Assembly: GCA_945897335.1 (NCBI GenBank)
Contig: CAMDFP010000001.1
Coordinates: 2,143-66,142, forward strand
Reading direction: 5' to 3'
Length of the DNA: 64,000 nt
From: Asaia bogorensis
Lineage (GTDB): Bacteria; Pseudomonadota; Alphaproteobacteria; SHVZ01
Under the pieces are notes generated by a model, which saw only the letters and a list, made by a program, of their open reading frames with translations, had not been told where the DNA came from and ran no database searches. Of the stretch, positions 10,478 to 60,247 are shown one piece after another. Both the position numbers and the translations under genes were made by a program. Position 1 is the first letter of the stretch. Every line of letters begins with the position of its first letter.

Positions 10478-10573
10478 GGCTCCGGACGTTCCGCCGGACG
10501 CGCTGAAAGGTCGGCGCGTCGCCCCGTCGCCGCGTAATCTTCCGCCGAGATCAGATCCTCGGGGAGAGAGACC

Positions 10574-11596
10574 GTGAATACCAACCAGACGATCGGCGTC
10601 GGCCTCATCGGCGCCGGCATCATGGGCCAGGCGCACGCAGCCGCCGTCGCCCTCGATCCTCGCGCCCGCTTCGTCGGCGTCGCCAGCCTGGAAGGCGCCC
10701 ACGAGATCGCGGGAAAATACCCCGGCACTTTCGCGACCAGGGATTACCGCGACCTGCTGGCGCGGAAGGACATCACGGTGGTGATCGTGGCCACGCCCGA
10801 TCACGCCCATTTCGCCATCTGCAAGGAAGCGATCGAAGCCGGCAAGAACGTGCTGGTGGAGAAGCCGCTGACGGTCGACCTGGACGAGGCCGACAAGCTG
10901 ATCGAGATCGTCAGGCGCTCCGGCCTCAAGCTGATGACCTGCTTCAGCCATCGCTGGATCCCGCCCTACTGGGCCGCGCACGAGGCGGTCGAGGCGGGCC
11001 GGCTCGGCCGCCCGGTGCTGGCCTATGCCAGGAAGAACGACACCATCTTCGTGCCCACCAAGATGCTGTCCTGGGCCGCCGGCACGACGTCGGCCTGGTT
11101 CCTCTCCAGCCACGACATCGACCTGGTCAGCTGGTACATGGGCGACCGCGCGGTCGAGGTCTATGCGACCGCGGTCTGGGGCGTGCTGCGCGGGCGCGGC
11201 ATCGAGACGCCGGATGCGATCCAGGCCCAGGTGCGCTTCGCCAAGGGCGGCGTCGCCACCTTCGAATCCTGCTGGATCTACCCCAACAGCTTCCCGACCA
11301 TGACCGACAGCTTCATCGAGATCGTCGGCGAGGCCGGCGTCATCCACCTGGAGCGCAAGGCCGAGCAGCTCGAGATCGCGACCGAGCAGGGCTATGAATG
11401 GCCGCGCACGCTGATCAAGCCGATCATCGCCGGCCGCCAGCAGGGCGCCCTGACGGAGATGGTGCACCACCTGATCGCCTGCGTCCGCGACGACAAGCCG
11501 CCGCTGGTGACGCTGGAAAGCTCGCGCGAAGTCACGGCGATCCTCGATGCCATCCACCGCTCCACGTCCAGCGGCAAGCCCGAGACGGTGAACTGA
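10574..11596 (+). CDS. Gfo/Idh/MocA family oxidoreductase
   Basis: GTG start at 10574 preceded by GGGGAGAGAG. IGVGLIGAGIMGQAHAAA Rossmann motif and VLVEKPLTVDL. Confidence 0.85.
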   Translation: MNTNQTIGVGLIGAGIMGQAHAAAVALDPRARFVGVASLEGAHEIAGKYPGTFATRDYRDLLARKDITVVIVATPDHAHFAICKEAIEAGKNVLVEKPLTVDLDEADKLIEIVRRSGLKLMTCFSHRWIPPYWAAHEAVEAGRLGRPVLAYARKNDTIFVPTKMLSWAAGTTSAWFLSSHDIDLVSWYMGDRAVEVYATAVWGVLRGRGIETPDAIQAQVRFAKGGVATFESCWIYPNSFPTMTDSFIEIVGEAGVIHLERKAEQLEIATEQGYEWPRTLIKPIIAGRQQGALTEMVHHLIACVRDDKPPLVTLESSREVTAILDAIHRSTSSGKPETVN

Positions 11597-11683
11597 CGCC
11601 GCATTTGCCGGGTGCAGCCTGCCCCGGACGACCGTATCTTCCGCCATGATGGCCGGATCGACCGGCAGGCTGGGGGACGTCGG

Positions 11684-13213
11684 ATGAGATCGCTGCAGGC
11701 CGTTACCTATCGCGCGACGCCCGCGGCGCTGGCCTCCCAAGCGCCTTTGCGCCGCTTCGCCGGCCCCTGGTCGCTGTGGGCGCTCGGCGTCAGCGTCGTC
11801 ATCTCGGGCGAGTTCTCCGGCTGGAACACCGGCCTGACCGTCGGCGGGTTCGGCGGCCTGCTGATCGCAACCATCGTCATCTCGGTCATGTATCTCGCCC
11901 TCGCCTTCTCGCTCGCCGAGATGTCGGCGGCGATGCCGCACGCGGGAGCGGCCTACAGCTTCGCGCGCACCGCCCTCGGGCCGATCGGGGGATGCGCCGC
12001 GGGCCTTGCCCAGATCATTTCATACGTGATGGCCGGTGCCGCCGTGGTGGTCACGCTCGGGGCCTATCTGCAGTCGCTCCTCTCCGCGCACTCCACCCTG
12101 AGCCTGCCCGAGCCGGTCTGGTGGGCCCTGCTCTACATCCTGTTCGTCGGGCTCAACATGCACGGCGCGGCGACGACGTTCCGGGTGGCGATCGTCCTCT
12201 CCATCGCCGCGCTCAGCGCCCTCGCCGGCTTCTGGGTGATCGCCCTGCCGGCCTTCGACCTCGATCTGGCGCTCAACGTGCCGGTGACAGCCGGCGGCAC
12301 GATCTACCTGCCCCACGGCCTGACCGGAATCGCCTGGGCGATCCCTTACGCGATCTGGTTCTATCTCGCGATCGAATCGGTGCCGCTCGCCGCCGAGGAA
12401 TCGGCGCGGCCTGCGTACGGCGTGCCGCGCGGCCTCGGCTGGGGCATCGTCACGCTGGTCGTCGCCGCCCTCGTCACCCTGGTGCTCAACAGCGGCGCGC
12501 CGCCGGGCGCTGCCGTGATCGGTGCCTCGCTGGAGCCGCTGGTGGCCGGGTACACCGGCATCCTCGGCGAGGGCAAGCGCCCCGCGCTGCTGGCGGCGAT
12601 CGGCATCGCCGGCCAGGCAGCCAGTTTCCACGCCACGATCTACGCCTTCGGCCGGGCGATCTTCGCCATGGCCCGGTCCGGCTACCTGCCGACGGCCCTG
12701 GCCCTGACCCTGCCCGGCCGCGCCACGCCGCACTACGCCCTGATCGCCGGCAGCGTGATCGGCTATCTGGTGGCGCTGGCCGGCAGCCTCATTCCCGAGG
12801 AGATCGGTCTCGGCGCGGCGCTGATCAGCATGTCGGCGTTCGCCGCGGTCATTTCCTACATCCTGCAGATGCTGGCGTTCGCGCGTCTGCGCCGACGCAA
12901 CCCCGATCTGCCGAGGCCCTATGTGAGCCCGCTCGGCGCGACCGGCGCGGTGACCGCGCTGGTCATCGCCATCGCGGCTCTCCTGTTCATGTTCCTGGAT
13001 CCGACGCTGCGCGCCGGCATGTTCGGCTGCGCCGCCATCCTCGCGGCCGGGCTCGCCTACTTCCTGCTTTTCGCGCGGCACCGGCTGATCCGCTCGCCCG
13101 AGGAAACCTTCGCTCTGGCCCAGAGCGGCCACGAGCGCGACGCCCTGGAACTCACCGGCGAAGCCGCCCCGGCCGAGACGCCGACCCGCACGGACACGCG
13201 CGCCCATGGCTGA
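11684..13213 (+). CDS. APC-superfamily amino acid/ethanolamine-type permease
   Basis: About 12 TM helices with ethanolamine-permease-like N-terminal composition (WSLWALGVSVVISGEFSGWNTGL…). ATG at 11684 with GGGGGA 7 nt upstream; the track ORF starts earlier at 11612. Confidence 0.75.
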   Translation: MRSLQAVTYRATPAALASQAPLRRFAGPWSLWALGVSVVISGEFSGWNTGLTVGGFGGLLIATIVISVMYLALAFSLAEMSAAMPHAGAAYSFARTALGPIGGCAAGLAQIISYVMAGAAVVVTLGAYLQSLLSAHSTLSLPEPVWWALLYILFVGLNMHGAATTFRVAIVLSIAALSALAGFWVIALPAFDLDLALNVPVTAGGTIYLPHGLTGIAWAIPYAIWFYLAIESVPLAAEESARPAYGVPRGLGWGIVTLVVAALVTLVLNSGAPPGAAVIGASLEPLVAGYTGILGEGKRPALLAAIGIAGQAASFHATIYAFGRAIFAMARSGYLPTALALTLPGRATPHYALIAGSVIGYLVALAGSLIPEEIGLGAALISMSAFAAVISYILQMLAFARLRRRNPDLPRPYVSPLGATGAVTALVIAIAALLFMFLDPTLRAGMFGCAAILAAGLAYFLLFARHRLIRSPEETFALAQSGHERDALELTGEAAPAETPTRTDTRAHG

Positions 13214-33338: not shown

Positions 33339-33420
33339 CTAACCCTCCCCCACGAAGGGGGGAGGGGATACGACGCCTCGTACCCCCTCCCCCTTGATGG
33401 GGGAGGGAGGGGTGGGGGTG
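33332..33420. repeat. nested-palindrome intergenic repeat (GGGGAGGG/CCCTCCCC type), copy 1
   Basis: The near-palindromic outer arm CCCCCACCCTAACCCTCCCCC (33332..33352) has its partner GGGGGAGGGAGGGGTGGGGG at 33400..33419; inner hairpins and a central GATACGACGCCTCGTAC lie between them. Related copies sit at 50821, 53427 and (divergent) 38885. Confidence 0.7.
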
Positions 33421-50820: not shown

Positions 50821-50915
50821 CCACCCCCACCCTGCCCTCCCCCATCAAGGGGGAAGGTTTACAAGGGGACCTCGTGTCCCCTCCCCCCTCCGTGGGGGAG
50901 GGTCAGGGTGGAGGG
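50821..50915. repeat. nested-palindrome intergenic repeat, copy 3
   Basis: CCACCCCCACCCTGCCCTCCCCCA…CGTGGGGGAGGGTCAGGGTGGAGGG, between hscB and hscA. Confidence 0.7.
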
Positions 50916-50939: not shown

Positions 50940-52856
50940 ATGACCCTCCTCCAGCTGCACGAGCCCGGCGAGACGCCGCTGCCGCATGAGGGCGACCAGG
51001 CGCTCGCGGTCGGCATCGACCTCGGCACCACCAATTCGGTCGTCGCCATCTCGACCTCCGGCAAGCCCGAGGTGCTGCGCGACGCCGCGGGCCGCGGCCT
51101 CGTTCCCTCGGTCGTGGCCTACACCGACGAGGGACCGATCGTCGGCGTTCAGGCGCAGGCGCGTCTCGTCGCCGAGCCCGATTCCGTCGTCTCCTCGGTC
51201 AAGCGCCTGATGGGCCGGGGATCCGCCGATGTGAAGGCGCTGGCCGGCACGCTGCCCTATCAGCTCGATGCCGCCGAGGGCGGCATGGTGCGCCTCCTGG
51301 TCGGCGGCCGCCGGCTGACCCCGGTCGAGATCTCCGCCGAGATCCTGAAGGCGGTGAAGGACCAGGCCGAGCAGCATCTCGGCCGCGAGGTCACCCGCGC
51401 CGTCGTCACCGTGCCGGCCTATTTCGACGATGCCGCGCGCCTTGCCACCAAAGACGCCGCCCGGCTCGCCGGGCTCGAGGTCCTGCGCCTGGTCAACGAG
51501 CCGACCGCGGCGGCTCTCGCCTACGGCCTCGATAAGGAGGCCGAGGGCGTCTATGCCGTCTACGACCTCGGCGGCGGCACCTTCGACGTCTCGATCCTGC
51601 GGCTGGAGAAGGGCGTCTTCCAGGTTCTGGCGACCGGCGGCGACGCCTCGTTGGGCGGCGACGATTTCGACCATGCCATCGCCGAGCACTGGCTCGCCGA
51701 CCGCCGCTCCGAACTCGGCGGCGAGCCGATCACCGCCGGCGAGGTCAAGCAGACGCTGAAGAGCGCGCGCGCCGCGAAGGAGGCCCTCACCACCCGCGAA
51801 GCCGGCGACTTCCCCGTCATGCTGCGCGGCAAGACCACGCTGCACCGCCTGACCCGCGAGACGCTCGACAAGCTGATCCGGCCCTGGATCGAGAAGACCG
51901 TCAAGATCGCCCGCCAGGTGGTCGACGACGCCCGCCTGGAGCTTCCCGAGATCAAGGGCGTGGTGCTGGTCGGCGGCTCCACCCGGGTCCCGCAAGTGCG
52001 GCACGCGGTCGAGGCCCTGTTCGGCACCAAGCCGCTGGCCGACATCGATCCCGACGAGGTGGTGGCGCTGGGCGCCGCGCTCCAGGCCGAGGCGCTGACC
52101 ACGGGCTCCGACACCCTCCTCCTCGACGTCCTGCCGCTGTCGCTCGGGCTCGAGACCATGGGCGGCCTCACCGAGAAGGTGATCGACCGCAACACCCCGA
52201 TCCCCGTCGCCAAGGCCCAGGAGTTCACGACATACCAGGACGGCCAGGGGGCAATGCTGATCCACGTCGTCCAGGGCGAGCGCGAGGCCGTGACCGACTG
52301 CCGCTCGCTGGCCCGCTTCGTGCTCGCCGGCATCCCGCCGATGGTGGCGGGCGCCGCCCGCATCCGGGTCACTTTCCAGGTCGACGCCGACGGGCTCCTG
52401 ACCGTCTCCGCCCAGGAAAAGACCACCGGCGTCGAGCAGCGGGTCGAGGTGAAGCCCTCCTACGGGCTTTCCGAGGACGAGATGGCGCGGATGCTGGAAG
52501 AGAGCATGATCCATGCCCGGGACGACATGGAGCGCCGCCTCCTGGTCGAGAACCGGGTCGAGGCCCGCCGCGTCCTTTTGGCGCTGGAGTCCGCCTTGGC
52601 CGCCGATGCCGGGCTGCTGGACGCCGGCGAGGGTGACCGTATAGAAGAGGCCCGCCGCCGCTTGGGGGCCGCGATCGAGGGTGAGGATCGCGACCTGATC
52701 AAGGCGGCGGTCGAGCGGCTGGAGGAGGCCGCCCGGCCGTTCGCCGAGCGGCGCATGGACCGGGCCATCCGGGCCGGCCTCGCCGGCCATTCGATCGATG
52801 AGTTCAAGGGCGATCCCGGCGGCTGCCTGGCGCCCGATCCTGAAGAGAAGAGCTAG
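50940..52856 (+). CDS. hscA: Fe-S assembly chaperone HscA (Hsp70 family)
   Basis: [11 protein letters not shown]…GIDLGTTNS…DLGGGTFD Hsp70 motifs. I chose the ATG at 50940, after the repeat. Confidence 0.9.
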
Positions 52857-53426: not shown

Positions 53427-53526
53427 GCCCCCCACCCCAACCCTCCCCCACGCGCCGCGGGGGGAGGGAGTACGACGCACCTCGTACCCCCTCCCCCCTC
53501 CGTGGGGGAGGGTTGGGGTGGGGGGC
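53427..53526. repeat. nested-palindrome intergenic repeat, copy 4 (most perfect)
   Basis: Outer arms CCCCCCACCCCAACCCTCCCCCAC / GTGGGGGAGGGTTGGGGTGGGGGG are exact reverse complements. The inner stem is GGGGGGAGGG/CCCCTCCCCCC around GTACGACGCACCTCGTAC. Confidence 0.75.
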
Positions 53527-53546
53527 GCAGCCGGACTCGCTGACCG

Positions 53547-54662
53547 ATGGATCCCCTGCGTCTCGGGGGTGATCCGTCCGACCATCTGGTCGCCGTCGCC
53601 ATGTCCGGCGGCGTCGATTCCTCGGCCGTCGCCGGCATGCTGGTCGAGGCCGGATACCGGGTCGCGGGATTCACGCTGCAGCTCTACGACCACGGTGCGG
53701 CGGTGGCCAAGAGCGGCGCCTGCTGCGCCGGCCAGGATATCCACGACGCCCGCCGCGTCGCCGCCCGCCTCGGCATTCCGCATTACGTGCTGGATTACGA
53801 GAGCCGCTTTCGCGAGCAGGTGATGGCGCCCTTCGCCGCCTCCTATCTCGCGGGCGAGACCCCGATCCCCTGCGTGCTCTGCAACCGCACGGTCAAGTTC
53901 GCCGACCTGCTGGGCATGTCGAAGGATCTCGGCGCCGCAGCCCTGGTCACCGGCCATTACGTCCGCCGCATCGAGGGCCCCACGGGGCCGGAGCTGCACC
54001 GGGCGGCCGATGCGTCGCGCGACCAGAGCTATTTCCTCTTCGGCACCACCAGGGACCAGCTCGCCCGCCTCCACTTCCCGCTCGGCGACAAGCCGAAGAG
54101 CGAGACCCGCGCCATTGCCGGCCGCCTCGGCCTCGCCGTAGCCTCGAAACCCGACAGCCAGGACATCTGCTTCGTTCCGGGCGGGCGCTATGCCGAGGTG
54201 GTGCGGAAGCTCCGCCCCGAAGCCGACGCGCCGGGCGAGATCGTCGACCTCTCAGGCCGCGTCGTCGGCAGGCACAAGGGCATCGTCGACTTCACCGTCG
54301 GCCAGCGGAAGGGCCTCGGCCTCGGCGCCACCTCCGACGGCACCGAGCCCTCCTATGTCTTGCGCCTGGAGCCCGAGACCCGCCGCGTCGTGGTCGGGCC
54401 GAAATCGGCGCTGGCGGCGAGCCGGGTCGATCTCCGCGACGTGAACTGGCTGGACGACGCGCCGATCCCGGCCGACGGCCTCGCAGTCGAGGTCAAGCTG
54501 CGCTCGGCCTCGCCGGCGGCGAAGGCCCGGCTGTTCCCGCTCGACGGCGGTGCTGAGCTGGCGCTGGACGAGCCCCAGCACGGCGTCTCGCCCGGCCAGG
54601 CCGGCGTGCTCTACCGCGGCGACCGCGTGCTCGGCGGCGGCTGGATCTCGCGGGCGGCATGA
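53547..54662 (+). CDS. mnmA: tRNA 2-thiouridine(34) synthase MnmA
   Basis: PP-loop SGGVDSS and the catalytic Cys context (IPCVLCNR). Confidence 0.9.
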
Positions 54663-55165
54663 GCGCCGGCGTCGTCATCCGCCCGGCGACGATCGAGGAC
54701 GCGCCCGCGCTGGCACTCCTGGTGGCGGCGCTCCGGGCGCATCAGAACGACCCGATCGGCGACCTGAACGAAGCGGCGATCCGCCGCGACGGCTTCGGCG
54801 AGGCGCCGGAGTTCAGCATCCTGATCGCCGAGCGCGACCGCCGGCCGATCGGCTATGCCCTCTTCACCAACACCTACGAGCCCGCCTTCGCCGCCAAAGG
54901 GGTCTATCTCGCCGACCTCTATGTCCGCCCGGAGGCACGCCGCTCGGGCGCCGGCCGCGCGCTGGTCCAGGCGGTCGCCGCCGAGGCCCGCCGGCACAAC
55001 CGCCGTTTCGTCTGGTGGACCTCGCTCACCACCAATGCCGAGGCACATGCCTTCTACGCCGCGCTCGGCGCCATCACGCATGAACTCCAGGCGCATGTGC
55101 TGGGCCTGGATGCCTTCGGCCGCCTCGCCGACGCCCATGGCGGCCCCGACCCCGCCTCCGCTTGA
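54659..55165 (+). CDS. GNAT family N-acetyltransferase
   Basis: Acetyl-CoA block (…[13 protein letters not shown]…). ATGA overlap with mnmA. Confidence 0.75.
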
Positions 55166-55238
55166 CGAGGCCCCCTCGGGCGGCCTATAGGCACGCTCTC
55201 TCCGCGGCCGGCCTTTCCTCGAGGCCGGTACGCCCGGT

Positions 55239-55312
55239 GGCGGTGTAGCTCAGCGGTAGAGCAGGGGAATCATAATCCCTTGGTCGGCGGTTCAAATCCG
55301 TCCACCGCTACC
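55239..55312 (+). tRNA. tRNA-Met (anticodon CAT); elongator Met or a lysidine-modified tRNA-Ile2 cannot be distinguished
   Basis: Cloverleaf read directly: acceptor GGCGGTG/CACCGCT, anticodon loop AUCAUAA, T-loop GGTTCAAATCC, encoded CCA. G1-C72 is paired, so it is not an initiator tRNA. Confidence 0.85.
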
Positions 55313-55315
55313 ATT

Positions 55316-55560
55316 AGGCTCCTAATTCGGGGAACGAACGCGGACCGGCCCTCGGTCTTACCGCGGGTAGCGTTGAAGAGGTCGGCAAAGCGGCTGTCCA
55401 GCTCGACTCGGACCTCATCTCGCTCTTCCTCAGGATAGACGACCACCTTCTCGACAATCGCTCGGATCACCCGCGCGGCCTTCTTGCGCGTCGTCGCATC
55501 CTCGGTGGTCGACGCCCGGAAATCCCTCGGCAGAGAGTGCGAGGGAGTTACCGGCACCAT
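55316..55560 (-). pseudogene. possible recombinase/integrase C-terminal remnant
   Basis: The ORF MVPVTPSHSLPRDFRASTTEDATTRKKAARVIRAIVEKVVVYPEEERDEVRVELD… runs into the tRNA antisense. It weakly resembles the C-terminal region of large serine recombinases. Very uncertain. Confidence 0.2.
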
Positions 55561-55739
55561 CTGTTTTAGGTTATGGAAAACGCTCGGTAGAACCCCAACA
55601 TCCCCTCAACGAGCATGAACCAGTGGACCACAGGAGCGTTACCTTCTCGCCAGGAGATAGTAACGGTAGCTGGACACGCGCTCGGTTAACGTGCTGATGT
55701 AAAGAGGCAGTCTTTGAGAATAATTATCAGTTGTGAAGG

Positions 55740-56486
55740 ATGACGAGACCGGTGGCAGACCGCGTTTGGGAGACGATGCAGGCTAGGATCACTCTGTTCT
55801 CAGAAGGGATCGAGAATGAGCCTTGGCTTCCCGCCCTCTTTGAAGCGATCGCAGAGAACAAAGCTGACAAGGTCGAAAGTCAACCAAAGACCGGCGTCAC
55901 AATTTCACGTGGCAAGTGGCGCGAGGGAGAGCTTCGCGTAAAAAGTGGTCCAGGTCGTTTCGATCTCATCCTCGCGCCGGAGATGGTTCAGACAGTGCAA
56001 CCCTTTCCGGTCATCGGCAGCATCGATGAGATGGATGTGATGATCGAGAAGGTGGAGACATACGTCGCTCCGAACCTGAAGACCACAGAGCGTGTCGCTC
56101 TCGGCATCGGCGTCATAAGCCGATGCGAGAATGAGGATGAAGCGACAAAGGTGGTTACCGAACTCGCGGGAGTGACGACCGACCTGACTAACGCCTCCGA
56201 CTTCATTTTTCAGATCAATCGGTATCGCCAAGTCGATGGGAGACGCGTCAACCGTATTTTGAAATGCTTGTCGTTCTCGGTGCAGGACATAGTCGCGAAT
56301 GTGGCAGCTGATGAAGCGCAGATTACACTTGCTGCGAACTACGCCCGCTGCGACTTCGATTTCAACACACATCCGAGCGGCACTGCCATGCCAGCAGACC
56401 CAATTCCGGCTAAGGAAGTCGCGCCCTGGCTCCGCCGGCTGAGCGGGATGGTTCGTCAAACCCTAACCGAAGGCTTTGCGTCGTGA
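55740..56486 (+). CDS. hypothetical protein, islet gene 1 of 3
   Basis: 248 aa with no recognisable domain. Lower GC. Its stop overlaps the next start (GTGA). Confidence 0.55.
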   Translation: MTRPVADRVWETMQARITLFSEGIENEPWLPALFEAIAENKADKVESQPKTGVTISRGKWREGELRVKSGPGRFDLILAPEMVQTVQPFPVIGSIDEMDVMIEKVETYVAPNLKTTERVALGIGVISRCENEDEATKVVTELAGVTTDLTNASDFIFQINRYRQVDGRRVNRILKCLSFSVQDIVANVAADEAQITLAANYARCDFDFNTHPSGTAMPADPIPAKEVAPWLRRLSGMVRQTLTEGFAS

Positions 56487-57238
56487 TTTCAATCGCCGCC
56501 TATAACGCTGCCGAAGCGGCATTGAACTCTATGGCGGGTGACCATTCGCGCGTGTCCACGGACGCTCACGGGTTGTTTGACTATCGACGGACCTTCAAGC
56601 GCGTACGCTTCGAGGCCGCTGGGACGCGAGGCGTCCCTATTGCCAACGTCACCGTCGTCCATCACGGAGATTTGGCGGATTCCGAGCCAGGCATTTGGGG
56701 CATTGCCACGCCCTCCGAGGCAATGATTGGCTGGACGCGCCGGGCAGTGAACGTTTTGTATTCCCACCCCTTGGCAGTCGTCAGCGCCACGGCGACTACT
56801 CCACATGATTTCTACACGGTCACGGAACTTGCCGCTGCCGTATCGATAGTCGGAGTGCTCGAGCATGGAAACGATCCGGTCGTTACATTGCGAGCCCCTC
56901 TCGCGATTGCCTCGCGTCGGCCCCCTGTGCGCTTTGCTTGGCTTGAAGCTGCCGCTCAGTTCGCAGCAGATGGCAACACTAAGATCGCCTTTCGAAGGGC
57001 CATAGCGGAGCTGGACCTACTGGTTACGAGTGCCGAGTGGGCGGCGATCGGAAGTATTCTTGAGTTATCGTCGACCAATAACCACCCGTGGACGTTCCGT
57101 GTAGGCGTGCTCCGGCTCCTCTCGAAATTTTCGGCGCAAATTCCTGGGTGGAATGACGCACTGAAGGACGTCACCAAGCGGATTAAGGCCGCCGGTAGAA
57201 ATCCCCACGTGGTTCTGCGAGGGCTGTCCCGAGTCTGA
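56483..57238 (+). CDS. hypothetical protein, islet gene 2 of 3
   Basis: 251 aa with no recognisable domain. Coupled on both sides (GTGA upstream, TGATG downstream). Confidence 0.55.
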   Translation: MISIAAYNAAEAALNSMAGDHSRVSTDAHGLFDYRRTFKRVRFEAAGTRGVPIANVTVVHHGDLADSEPGIWGIATPSEAMIGWTRRAVNVLYSHPLAVVSATATTPHDFYTVTELAAAVSIVGVLEHGNDPVVTLRAPLAIASRRPPVRFAWLEAAAQFAADGNTKIAFRRAIAELDLLVTSAEWAAIGSILELSSTNNHPWTFRVGVLRLLSKFSAQIPGWNDALKDVTKRIKAAGRNPHVVLRGLSRV

Positions 57239-57915
57239 TGCTAACCGAGGTTCGCGTCAGGGCACCGGCGCCCGGCCAGATCGGTATCGGATTGCCGCTC
57301 GAGCGCGGCGACGTAGTCCGGCACGTCGGGTTGATTTCTGAATCAGAGGCCGGCTCGATGATGCTGACGCATCTCCGGATGGACCGCGACTTCGAAGCTG
57401 GCGATGTTCCGCAGGACTGGCTCTGGATTAACATCGACCTGGACGGGTTCGAAGTGGATCTCGTTACCGAGCTCGTCAACAAAATCGTCGCGCGCAAGCC
57501 GCAAAAAGTTATGGGCTACTCGTTTGTCCCGCCTGGGAAAGGCTTCTCGGTCAAGGACGGCGAAATCATTGCAATCGGATTTACCTGTTCGACCTACGCG
57601 ATGGCAGTGTTCGACAGCGTTTCGATCCCCTTAATCGACGAAGCGACCTGGGAGCCGCGGGAGTCAGACAAATGGTGGCAGATCGAATTTGTCGCTCACG
57701 TAACGAAGAAAGACGCAATGCTCGGATTGAAGCTGGACGCGGAGGTTGGCGCGCTGCGGTTTCGTCCAGGTGAGGTCGCTGGTGCGGGCTCGGTCGGGAG
57801 AGTCCGACGGCCGGTGAAGTTCAAAATCGCTGAAAAGCTGGCCGAAAAGCTACTTCACGAACTCAAAAGGACCCGCGAGAACATCGAAAGGCGCGCGGCC
57901 AAATCCAAGCGATGA
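57238..57915 (+). CDS. hypothetical protein, islet gene 3 of 3
   Basis: 225 aa, with a basic C-terminal tail KLAEKLLHELKRTRENIERRAAKSKR. No recognisable domain. Confidence 0.55.
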   Translation: MLTEVRVRAPAPGQIGIGLPLERGDVVRHVGLISESEAGSMMLTHLRMDRDFEAGDVPQDWLWINIDLDGFEVDLVTELVNKIVARKPQKVMGYSFVPPGKGFSVKDGEIIAIGFTCSTYAMAVFDSVSIPLIDEATWEPRESDKWWQIEFVAHVTKKDAMLGLKLDAEVGALRFRPGEVAGAGSVGRVRRPVKFKIAEKLAEKLLHELKRTRENIERRAAKSKR

Positions 57916-58033
57916 TTGGCGGTGACGTTCTGGCCAAAATGCTCCACCGCTACCATTCTTTCCTCTCCTCGATTGACCGCGCCCGGCTGGGATCCCTAGG
58001 CTTGGGCGGCACCGTGGCCTAAAAGGGGCGCGT

Positions 58034-58432
58034 ATGGACTTCATCGGCATCAAGAAGGTAATGCTCGCCCTCGGCGCGGTGGCGACGGTGGTGATCTTCT
58101 TTCGCCAGGCCGGCACGATGGCCGCGCTGATCCATCCGCCCACCATGCTGCTGCTGGGCTGGTGCCTGCTGCCGATGGCGCATCTCGGCATGTTCGGGCG
58201 CGAGGACGACCGGAGGATCGTGCATCTCCTGCTGCTGGCGGCGACCGCGATCGCCGTCGTCTCCGGCGTCTGGGTCTATGTCGACGTGCTGGTGCTCCAC
58301 GTGCACGCGTCGAGCCCCATCGCCTTCATGGTCGTGCCTCTGATGCAGATGGCGGTGGTGGTGCTGGCGATCGGGGCCGCCTGGCAGATCCGGCGCCGGG
58401 CCCGCGCGGCACCGGCCGGCGCGAGTCCGTAA
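58034..58432 (+). CDS. small integral membrane protein (about 4 TM), hypothetical
   Basis: The hydrophobic helices are seen directly. AAAAGGGG lies upstream of the ATG. Confidence 0.5.
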   Translation: MDFIGIKKVMLALGAVATVVIFFRQAGTMAALIHPPTMLLLGWCLLPMAHLGMFGREDDRRIVHLLLLAATAIAVVSGVWVYVDVLVLHVHASSPIAFMVVPLMQMAVVVLAIGAAWQIRRRARAAPAGASP

Positions 58433-58477
58433 AAATATATATGGCGGGCTGCCCCTTAATATGGGGATGCGGTGTTT

Positions 58478-58491
58478 CAATACGCGTATTG
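58478..58491. promoter_or_regulatory. perfect 14-bp palindrome CAATACGCGTATTG upstream of the HWE kinase gene
   Basis: Seen directly, in an AT-rich stretch (AAAATATATATGG…). Confidence 0.3.
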
Positions 58492-58519
58492 GTACCTGCA
58501 CCATGTCAGCCTGCCCCTG

Positions 58520-60247
58520 ATGACCGGCGCCCTGCCCCGCCCCCCGACAGCCGGGCGTGGTTTCGCGCCTAGGCTCACGCTGGCTCAGCGGCTGTTCTTG
58601 CTGGCGCTGATCGCCCTGCTGCCGGGAACGCTGGTGCTCGCCTACAACGAGATCGAGCTCCGGCGCGCGCGGCTGGCCGAACTCCATGTCGAGGCGGCGC
58701 GGAACGCCCGCCTGGCCGCCTCCGAGGTCGAGCAGATCTTCGAGGGCGTACGCGGCATCCTCGCCACCATCGGCGTGTCTCAGGAGGTGCGGAGCTTCGA
58801 CGCCTCGGCCTGCCACGCCTTCCTCGCCGAAGTCGCGACCCGCCTGCCGCAGCTGGACGCGATCGTCGTCGTCGATGCCGCGGGCGAGCTCAAATGCCGG
58901 AGCGGTACCACCGCGACACTGACCAGCTATGCCGGCAATTCCTTCTTCAAGGAGGCGGTCGCGGACCGGAAGTTCGCCGTCGGCCAGTACGTCATCGGTG
59001 CGGTCTCCGGACGCCCGCGCCTGCCGGTGGCGCTGCCGGTAGCCGGCGCCGGGGGCAGCATCGAGCGCGTGATCATCGCCTCCCTCGACATGGCGTGGCT
59101 GGGCGCCCGGGTGCGCGAGCGCGGCCTCGATTCCGGCGGCGCCATCGCGATCGCCGACCGCAACGGCATCCTGATCGCGCGTGAGCCTGATCCCGAGCGG
59201 TTCGTCGGCACCCGTATCCCCGACGCCTACCAGCCGCTGGTACGCGCCGCACAGCCCGGCACCGAGGAGGTCGTGAGCCAGGACGGAACCCGGCGGGTGC
59301 TGGGATATGTGCCGGCGAGCGTCTCGCCGATCGGCCTCTACGTCAGCACCGGCGCCGCGTCCGGCGACGCCTTCGACGTGATCGAACGCTCGACCCGCCG
59401 GAGCCTGGTCTTCCTCGCCATCGGCGCCATCGCCACGCTGCTGCTCGCCTGGTGGTTCGGGCGGACCTACATCACGCACAAGGTCATGCGCGTGGTCAGG
59501 ACGACGGAGACATGGCGGAACGGCGATCTCAGCGCGCGCACCCTCATGGACGGGCGCGACGGCGAGATCGAGGCCATCGCCCAGGCGTTCGACCTTCTGG
59601 CCGACGAGCTCGCCGCTCGCCAGCGCGAGCGCGACAAGGCCGATCACCAGCGCGAGCTGCTGCTGAACGAACTGACCCATCGGGTCCGCAACGTGCTTGC
59701 CACCGTCCAGTCGGTGGCCGCGCTCAGCTTCCGCAACGCCCAGGGGCCCGACGCCTTCCGCGCCTTCAACAGCCGCCTGCAGGCGCTCGCCCGCAGCCAT
59801 GAGCTGCTGACCCGCAAGCAATGGGACTCGGCCGAGATCGGCGAAGTGGTCCGCGACGCGATCGCACCCTTGCGCGGCGACGACGATCGCCGGTTCGCGG
59901 TCTCCGGGCCGCCCGTCCACCTGTCCTCGGCCGGGACGGTGTCGGTCTCGATGATGCTGCACGAGCTCTGCACCAACGCGGTGAAGTACGGCGCGCTCTC
60001 CAACGAAAGCGGTCGGGTGTCCATCACCTGGACCGCCGAGGCCAGGCGTGACGACATCGACTTCGGCCTCCACTGGCTGGAATATGGCGGCCCGCCTGTA
60101 GTGGCGCCGACGCGCGTCGGTTTCGGCTCCCGCTTGATTCCGGCACTGGCGCAGGAGATGGGCGGCGAGGTGCAGATCTCCTACCTCCCGGAAGGGGTGA
60201 GCTGCACGATCCGGCTCCGCCTGGCGAAGCTTCCGGGCAAGACCTGA
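58520..60247 (+). CDS. HWE/HisKA_2-family sensor histidine kinase with periplasmic Cache-like domain and HAMP
   Basis: H-box HRVRNVLATV and HWE-type ATPase HELCTNAVKYGA…GGEVQISYLPEG. There are two TM segments. The start is either the ATG at 58520 or the GTG at 58472. Confidence 0.8.
   Translation: MTGALPRPPTAGRGFAPRLTLAQRLFLLALIALLPGTLVLAYNEIELRRARLAELHVEAARNARLAASEVEQIFEGVRGILATIGVSQEVRSFDASACHAFLAEVATRLPQLDAIVVVDAAGELKCRSGTTATLTSYAGNSFFKEAVADRKFAVGQYVIGAVSGRPRLPVALPVAGAGGSIERVIIASLDMAWLGARVRERGLDSGGAIAIADRNGILIAREPDPERFVGTRIPDAYQPLVRAAQPGTEEVVSQDGTRRVLGYVPASVSPIGLYVSTGAASGDAFDVIERSTRRSLVFLAIGAIATLLLAWWFGRTYITHKVMRVVRTTETWRNGDLSARTLMDGRDGEIEAIAQAFDLLADELAARQRERDKADHQRELLLNELTHRVRNVLATVQSVAALSFRNAQGPDAFRAFNSRLQALARSHELLTRKQWDSAEIGEVVRDAIAPLRGDDDRRFAVSGPPVHLSSAGTVSVSMMLHELCTNAVKYGALSNESGRVSITWTAEARRDDIDFGLHWLEYGGPPVVAPTRVGFGSRLIPALAQEMGGEVQISYLPEGVSCTIRLRLAKLPGKT

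Follow-up and report, generated by a model that had tools for sequence, protein, structure and literature searches.

A short att-bounded islet without an integrase at the 3' end of a tRNA-CAT gene in Asaia bogorensis and its three-gene operon

A stretch of 64,000 nucleotides from Asaia bogorensis (GenBank assembly GCA_945897335.1, contig CAMDFP010000001.1, positions 2,143 to 66,142; termed the window in the following, with position 1 being its first letter) was analyzed with respect to a short islet, which adjoins the 3' end of a tRNA gene and carries three genes. The tRNA gene (55239-55313, plus strand, anticodon CAT) was detected with ARAGORN and Rfam. It is the only tRNA that ARAGORN found in the window, and Rfam found nothing besides tRNA. 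ARAGORN labels the gene Met, a label which does not separate elongator Met, initiator Met and Ile2(k2C). As the integration target, the gene is left intact including the encoded CCA. The islet is bounded by a 15-bp direct repeat, TCCACCGCTACCATT. Its left copy, the core of the attachment (att) site attL (55301-55315, plus strand), runs from the final 2 nt of the T stem through the acceptor-stem 3' strand and the discriminator base to CCA and TT, i.e., 13 nt of the tRNA plus 2 nt. The right copy, the attR core (57943-57957, plus strand), is found 27 nt past the stop codon of the last islet gene. The sequence occurs only twice in the window when both strands are searched, even with up to two mismatches allowed, and the identity between the copies stops at 15 nt on both sides. 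An exact 15-bp repeat at the tRNA 3' end had been reported in the preliminary description of this DNA and both copies were found again; the right copy had been placed correctly, whereas the left copy, given as 55300-55314, was one base too low. The two copies enclose 2627 bp of DNA (55316-57942), and together with one copy of the core the inserted unit amounts to 2,642 bp (55316-57957).

According to the list of open reading frames (ORFs), the islet contains an antisense ORF, a leader of about 180 nt and three genes on the plus strand, and no further ORFs. The antisense ORF has 96 codons and runs, as described before, into the tRNA (55560 to 55270, minus strand); its islet-encoded part is 55316-55560, while its last 14 codons and the stop codon at 55270 are located inside the tRNA gene. 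The leader upstream of the first gene (55561-55739) is non-coding and AT-richer (GC about 0.52), and presumably holds the promoter of the cassette; a scan for σ70 promoters and terminators gave no match to the σ70 consensus in the leader. ORF1 (55740-56486, 248 aa) is followed by ORF2 (56483-57238, 251 aa), whose GTG start codon overlaps the ORF1 stop codon (GTGA), and by ORF3 (57238-57915, 225 aa), whose ATG overlaps the ORF2 stop codon. On the left, the islet is flanked by a gene for a GNAT acetyltransferase (54659-55165, plus strand), which is a host gene by composition, and on the right by a host gene for a membrane protein of 132 aa (58034-58432, plus strand).

The unoccupied site was obtained from a metagenome scan with the 3' half of the tRNA, which returned 28 loci, several of them from related organisms (loci are numbered with the prefix L). 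In locus L117, the gene for a GNAT acetyltransferase (84% amino acid identity) is followed by the tRNA and, after 79 nt, by the membrane-protein gene (90%) and an HWE kinase gene (77%); the 15-mer is present once. With blastn, L117 1-657 aligned to window 54663-55315 (87.9% identity) and L117 643-2383 to window 57943-59681 (86.0% identity). Both alignments overlap by exactly one 15-mer (L117 643-657), which maps to both copies in the window. Removal of 55316-57957 in silico makes the window colinear with L117, with L115 and L097, whose sites are also empty, and with L108 after subtraction of an insert of its own. The empty site which the preliminary description had proposed to look for, i.e., the tRNA followed directly by the 58034-type membrane-protein gene, exists in L117. 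These comparisons identify 55316-57957 as an insertion into the 3' end of the tRNA-CAT gene, with a tRNA-derived direct repeat, an intact tRNA and relatives in which the site is unoccupied and has one copy of the core. The attB junction predicted after removal of the islet is GGTTCAAATCCGTCCACCGCTACCATTCTTTCCTCTCCTCG and the attP junction predicted for the circularized islet is CTGGCCAAAATGCTCCACCGCTACCATTAGGCTCCTAATTCG. The contigs of GTDB representative genomes were scanned with MnmA as well and yielded neither a close relative (66% identity at best) nor an empty site.

Both junctions of the islet recur in independent assemblies from several samples, namely the whole islet in L009, the attL side in L002 and L005, and the attR side in L010, L013 and L014; therefore, the islet is not an assembly artefact or chimera. 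Exact look-ups of the proteins encoded in the flanking genes returned only contigs colinear with the window, and the contig breaks seen there, at 55264/55274 and 57954, were uninformative.

The composition of the islet differs from that of the host. The GC content between the repeats is 57.6% compared to 68.1% in the rest of the window; the background of about 68% given earlier is accurate and the lower value between the repeats is real, but the figure of 55% was too low. Compared to all non-overlapping windows of equal size, the GC content of the islet has a z value of -5.4 and is the lowest of the window. In tetranucleotide composition, the islet is at a distance of 0.406 from the window average versus 0.189 ± 0.023 for the background, about 9 standard deviations above it. 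A profile of GC content and k-mer composition shows both the strongest k-mer atypicality and the lowest GC in the islet. The GC content at third codon positions (GC3) is 0.64-0.71 in ORF1-3 and 0.77 in the antisense ORF, versus 0.89-0.93 in the flanking genes hscA, fdx and mnmA and the genes for GNAT, the membrane protein, HWE kinase and LysE. Because of the GC content, GC3 and k-mer atypicality, a horizontal acquisition of the islet and its cargo, as proposed in the preliminary description, is supported.

The repeat on its own is weaker evidence than the chance expectation of 6e-5 quoted for its recurrence would imply, since repeated 15-mers are common in this GC-rich window (87, of which 25 are ≤ 5 kb apart); the recurrence itself stands. 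Its weight comes jointly from the fact that a 15-mer specified beforehand by the tRNA end was found repeated, that both copies match the composition boundaries, and that the site is empty in relatives. The frequency of repeated 15-mers would also suit an explanation in which the three genes belong to the original content of this lineage and the relatives have deleted them, with the repeat being a coincidence or by-product, and the empty sites do belong to other organisms and a different strain. However, the difference in GC3 (0.64-0.71 versus 0.89-0.93) and the k-mer atypicality end exactly at the repeats, one copy is precisely the tRNA 3' end and a single copy is present in the empty site, the genes are absent in four or five related lineages, and homologs of the cassette are carried, with low GC there too, by prophages of unrelated bacteria (see below). 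An ancestral origin is thus considered very improbable. Apart from this, a G/C-rich dispersed repeat of 26 nt, CCCCTCCCCCCTCCGTGGGGGAGGGT, was noticed at 50878-50903 (plus), 53488-53513 (plus) and 33342-33367 (minus). Two of its copies are exact and one has a single mismatch, where none is expected by chance. Copies are positioned just 5' of hscA and mnmA and resemble an intergenic element of the repetitive extragenic palindromic (REP) type.

No integrase is encoded in the islet. Its proteins gave no significant match, to an integrase or to any other family, in Pfam, NCBIfam, PHROGs or PADLOC. Furthermore, tblastn searches and a hidden Markov model (HMM) built from nine tyrosine integrases were run against the six-frame translations of the islet and the 64-kb window; nothing significant was obtained in the islet and the sole match in the window (E = 0.007, 51096-51266) is inside hscA. 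The absence of an intact integrase reported earlier was confirmed by these searches, and no integrase of its own stands beside either att site. Residual structural, replication or lysis genes or pseudogenes of phages were not detected in the islet, the sole PHROG signal being a weak one of ORF3 to a family of unknown function.

The antisense ORF was considered separately. The ORF at 55316-55560 showed no similarity to recombinases in the profile search proposed beforehand, nor in any other of the searches used (Pfam, NCBIfam, PHROGs, PADLOC, tblastn and the integrase HMM), the only match independent of itself being noise (E = 0.9). With tblastn, no plasmid or phage match was found, and in the exhaustive HMMER scan described below it had only itself among the 150 matches listed. 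Its sequence had at first suggested the C-terminal part of a large serine recombinase, which none of these searches supported; it may be a spurious or hybrid ORF.

Word-indexed homolog searches with ORF1, ORF2 and ORF3 returned self matches only. An exhaustive HMMER scan of 1.84 billion representative proteins, with the four islet ORFs concatenated as query and E ≤ 0.001, found 1,158 proteins. Most of the matches listed are full-length relatives of ORF3 (215-235 aa, 25-37% identity) and a smaller set are ORF1 relatives of about 250 aa. The homologs are annotated as 'hypothetical protein' in the source databases. Relatives of ORF3 are encoded by an isolated phage, Acinetobacter phage phi9102, and by one Rhizobium plasmid.

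A profile of ORF3 detected 17 viral loci in IMG/VR. Profile and iterative searches of the ORFs in these contigs revealed colinear ORF1/ORF2/ORF3 triplets in 11 of the 17 and ORF2+ORF3 pairs in three, while two are cut by the contig end; examples of triplets are L130 (464-1174/1152-1826/1819-2466) and L137 (1211-2035/2032-2646/2659-3351). The homology of ORF2 is based on a conserved C-terminal helical domain and on the constant position between ORF1-like and ORF3-like genes. Because the inclusion threshold of the iterative searches was lenient, the positional agreement is the stronger argument for ORF2. On this comparative evidence, ORF1-ORF2-ORF3 is a conserved colinear operon. The cargo had been described as three unknown genes, which is correct insofar as no known family was matched, but they are not unrelated orphans.

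The position of the cassette is similar throughout the viral loci. Counted from the ranges, it is ≤ about 600 nt from the end of the viral contig in 14/17 loci, and its GC content is below that of the rest of the locus in 16/17, usually by about 10 points. The genes beside the cassette encode tyrosine integrases in nine of ten cases checked, the tenth being a UmuC-like polymerase. Locus L130 has a layout like that of the window, with a tRNA-Ser, 365 nt, ORF1-3 (plus), 44 nt and an integrase gene (minus). In L137 and L139, the integrase gene directly precedes the cassette and has the same orientation; L140 has the full order tRNA, integrase gene (plus), cassette. Between the element end and ORF1, about 390-550 nt are found in the prophage homologs. 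In prophages, the operon is carried inside the element as an accessory cassette at its attL end, and the genes retained in the islet have prophage homologs at the corresponding position. A search of the L130 region against E. coli genomes gave no match.

Relatives of ORF1 or ORF3 are not restricted to this triplet. Some were found next to a HEAT-repeat protein and a small protein or next to a ParA-like protein, among other partners, and some on their own in the vicinity of lysis and methylase genes of prophages. In L123 (6001-8184) and L148 (7001-9019), an ORF1-like gene is accompanied by a gene for a protein of 269-332 aa (with HEAT_2 in L148) and one for a protein of about 150-160 aa. Such neighborhoods suggest that ORF1 serves as a common module whose partners can be exchanged.

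ORF1 is a member of an unnamed family, whose proteins have about 250 aa and share invariant R118, A120, D148, N160, N171 and D207 as well as the motifs NSSDFLYQINRPR and CRLELDINT; its predicted fold is alpha+beta with duplicated sheets. A relationship of ORF1 to TIGR04255, for which a protein in L128 gave reason, was rejected, as neither an NCBIfam match among 15 ORF1-family members nor anything in the literature was found. ORF2 consists of a variable N-terminal part and the conserved helical C-terminal domain of about 110 aa, in which R211, W223 and G247 are invariant and the motif LRxSF..R..LPxW....LRGL is present. The invariant residues of the ORF3 family are H29, G114, C117 (in GLTCATF), W138 and R174 (in RFRPEEVA). 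For ORF3, a circularly permuted papain-like/NlpC-P60 (YiiX-like) Cys/His hydrolase is predicted. The permuted reading, in which the catalytic His precedes the Cys, fits the invariant order of His and Cys, and H29 and C117 are the predicted catalytic residues.

Curated families gave no corresponding assignment. Pfam did not match ORF1, the ORF2 family or ORF3, and no papain-like or NlpC/P60 family appeared among 49 ORF3 relatives, one of which had a weak match to RNase_H_2 (E = 0.004); ORF3 is accordingly not a member of a curated papain-like/NlpC-P60 sequence family. Neither the ORF3 nor the ORF2 family matched sequence profiles of the Protein Data Bank (PDB). In the literature, nothing specific was found on a permuted papain-fold system at prophage ends. 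Taken together, the ORF1 and ORF3 families have hundreds of members without assignment in Pfam, NCBIfam or PADLOC.

The related loci show the 3' end of the tRNA-CAT gene to be a hotspot for inserts. The order of mnmA and tRNA-CAT (window counterpart 53547-55313) is conserved in about 36/80 alphaproteobacterial loci (L015-L094), by which it is judged ancestral in many Alphaproteobacteria. Several alphaproteobacterial contigs break exactly at the tRNA-CAT adjacent to mnmA. Locus L108 (SXGR01067990.1) is related to the window (87% identity for MnmA, 87% for the membrane protein and 88% for LysE) and has a different insert of about 1.1 kb at the same site, also without integrase. This insert is flanked by a 45-nt repeat, which reaches from the anticodon loop to CCA, beside a near-complete second copy of the tRNA; in the re-oriented region 1394-2594, the two tRNA-CAT calls are 1.1 kb apart and have 45 identical 3' nucleotides. 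The second copy with its diverged 5' half is probably a pseudo-tRNA. The cargo of the L108 insert, as read from the sequences, is presumably a HigB/HigA-like toxin-antitoxin pair. The 45-nt repeat from the anticodon loop and the second tRNA copy imply that the L108 islet used another att site and, probably, another integrase. Hence, sister lineages have two different integrase-less islets in the same tRNA.

Elements with integrases use the same tRNA, since L102, L105 and L116 have a tyrosine integrase gene on the opposite strand 150-180 nt past an identical tRNA 3' half. Between the tRNA and the integrase gene, these three loci contain paired direct repeats of 10-12 nt (e.g., GTTTTAGCACTC twice and GTTTATCACTCG twice), which look like arm-type binding sites. 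L101, L112, L096 and L100 have only the 3' part of the tRNA, from the anticodon stem/loop to CCA, preceded by non-tRNA sequence; these parts resemble attR or attP sites belonging to other elements that use the same tRNA. Of the more distant relatives, L095 (re-oriented, 10521-12034) has a gene for a glycosyltransferase-like protein of 322 aa directly after the tRNA without a flanking repeat, and in both L095 and L104 (7216-7577) the membrane-protein gene is preceded by a small Cys-rich ORF (MLCWFCDRTGWVCENH...).

These observations are best accommodated if the locus is a horizontally acquired, integrase-less islet resembling a cis-mobilizable element (CIME), which derives from a prophage-type element and whose operon is most likely a conflict module; we assign this reading a probability of about 0.7. 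The element would have entered the 3' end of the tRNA-CAT gene by site-specific recombination of the tyrosine-integrase type through the 15-nt identity block. The att site of the incoming element would have carried TCCACCGCTACCATT, by which the tRNA was rebuilt at attL and the displaced copy marks attR. The islet would correspond to the attL-proximal end of a temperate-phage-like element, with a leader of about 425 nt (counted from the left core) and the translationally coupled three-gene operon. In intact elements, the operon is situated between the end of the element and the gene for the integrase; here, the latter and all the rest would be gone. We infer that an integrase was formerly present because homologous cassettes adjoin tyrosine integrases in prophages. 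Of the preliminary statement that the integrase had been lost, the absence holds, whereas the loss is deduced from these cassettes and has left no remnant. Any mobility of the islet would, as in CIMEs, need an integrase supplied in trans or in cis.

Several points weigh against this reading. No trace of an integrase remains, and an internal deletion would need both of its end points within the 27 nt from the ORF3 stop codon to the attR core, which would be unusually tidy. Among the viral contigs and fetched loci, there was neither a relative of the islet at the nucleotide level nor a phage or contig with one of the junction arms. In the prophage loci, no repeats bordering just the cassette were detected, and a self-contained unit of cassette plus att sites was not seen elsewhere. 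The nearest empty site is in a related organism and a different population, and none was seen in the same population among the assemblies carrying the flanking genes. With respect to a role in defense, PADLOC-DB 2.0 gave no significant match for ORF1, ORF3 and their families and for the ORF2 of the window (the viral ORF2 relatives were not scanned), with only isolated single-member matches of E ≥ 0.003 and no assignment to a listed defense system. Further, the above-mentioned occurrence of ORF1 and ORF3 relatives alone or with other partners weighs against this role.

The tidy right end bears on a second explanation, in which the islet is an active non-autonomous mini-element, similar to a CIME or a satellite, whose att cores would still serve as substrates for an integrase, encoded either at another place in the genome or by an incoming phage or integrative and conjugative element; it would then continue to excise and spread, as a streamlined hitchhiker and not a decaying remnant. 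The two identical 15-mers, the tight bounds with 27 nt between the ORF3 stop codon and attR, the second compact att-flanked islet without integrase in L108 and the integrase-bearing elements which target the same tRNA in L102, L105 and L116 are in line with this, and CIMEs are defined by having kept attL and attR and lost the integration and transfer genes (PMC6323972). In the metagenome variants L002, L005 and L009, compared over window 53486-58443, synonymous single-nucleotide polymorphisms (SNPs) are found in mnmA and the GNAT gene and none in ORF1-3; the sole SNP of the islet (55484) is non-synonymous and in the antisense ORF, and these numbers are too small for statistics. On the other hand, a cognate integrase is missing from the 64-kb window, a search of the viral collection with both junction arms gave no attP or circular junction and no second copy, an empty site was not seen in the same population, and arm-type repeats like those of L102, L105 and L116 are not evident in the leader. 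An active mini-element is therefore rated unlikely, clearly below the CIME-like islet of prophage descent. On the narrower question of whether the islet is the remnant of an internal deletion or a streamlined hitchhiker, the evidence leans both ways: a hitchhiker is slightly favored by the tidy right end, the L108 islet and the lack of SNPs in ORF1-3 (very small numbers), and disfavored by the missing helper, attP junction and second copy.

Concerning the cargo, defense and superinfection-exclusion genes tend to collect at prophage ends beside integrases, and a position by the integrase, low GC and modular partners are typical of morons and defense genes. In the proposed model, ORF3 would be the enzymatic effector and the variable part of ORF2 would confer specificity. 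A conflict function, i.e., phage defense, superinfection exclusion or addiction, is most likely in our assessment because of the location, the low GC, the modular partners, the enzymatic component and the toxin-antitoxin neighbor in L108. An addictive or protective function would have allowed the cassette to survive when the rest of the element was lost. The operon could instead have an ordinary accessory function, either as an envelope- or peptide-modifying hydrolase with two partners or as a phage function related to lysogeny. Reading of the sequences revealed no obvious signal peptide or membrane segment in ORF1-3, the cassette is consistently found at prophage ends by integrases with low GC and modular partners, and a toxin-antitoxin pair occupies the same spot in the L108 lineage; accordingly, we regard an ordinary function as rather doubtful, though less so than an active mini-element. 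A more far-reaching proposal, which we put forward tentatively and with about the same reserve, is that ORF1-3 are a new widespread anti-phage or addiction system with a predicted permuted papain-like effector at the attL end of phages, and that the islet is its minimal mobile form, consisting of the cassette and two att cores and depending on integrases of other elements.

As a feature of the genome, the locus is a clean but familiar case of an att-bounded islet at a tRNA hotspot with an empty site, and offers a small natural example of a cassette outliving its carrier element. Its value is in the cargo, an uncatalogued, widespread three-gene module and candidate for a new conflict system.

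The islet shares with tRNA-targeting islands and prophages of the tyrosine-integrase type the insertion at the tRNA 3' end, the tRNA-restoring repeat, the foreign composition and the presence/absence pattern with a single-core empty site. It differs from them in having no integrase, excisionase, phage or transfer gene and a size of only 2.6 kb. In the classification said to have been introduced by Williams in 2002, the islet would fit the class with an identity block over the tRNA 3' end. This block is short in the islet, measuring 15 nt, where the L108 islet has 45 nt. The L108 islet resembles the one of the window in its site, tRNA-derived direct repeats, lack of an integrase and compact conflict-type cargo, but its cargo is unrelated and its repeat starts in the anticodon loop, beside the near-complete second tRNA copy.

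CIMEs were described for the integrative and conjugative elements (ICEs) of Streptococcus and are listed in ICEberg 2.0 (PMC6323972). Their definition refers to a related ICE, from which they derive and by which they are mobilized in cis through accretion at the shared att site. As far as sequence can tell, the islet has both of their features, since it keeps attL and attR and lacks integration and transfer genes, and its small cargo would likewise need a helper. Unlike in CIMEs, the relatives of its cargo are in prophage-like contigs and not in ICEs, and the window contains no helper. Morons and defense hotspots at prophage ends are similar in that homologous cassettes are terminal in viral contigs, adjoin tyrosine integrases and have a GC content below that of the prophage; in contrast, the cassette of the window is alone without a prophage, and no catalogued defense system was matched. 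Compared to YiiX-like/PPPDE permuted papain-like hydrolases, ORF3 is without sequence match in Pfam or PDB and has an additional C-terminal helical region with RFRPEEVA. As an element, the islet is of a familiar type, while its cargo is an uncatalogued module.

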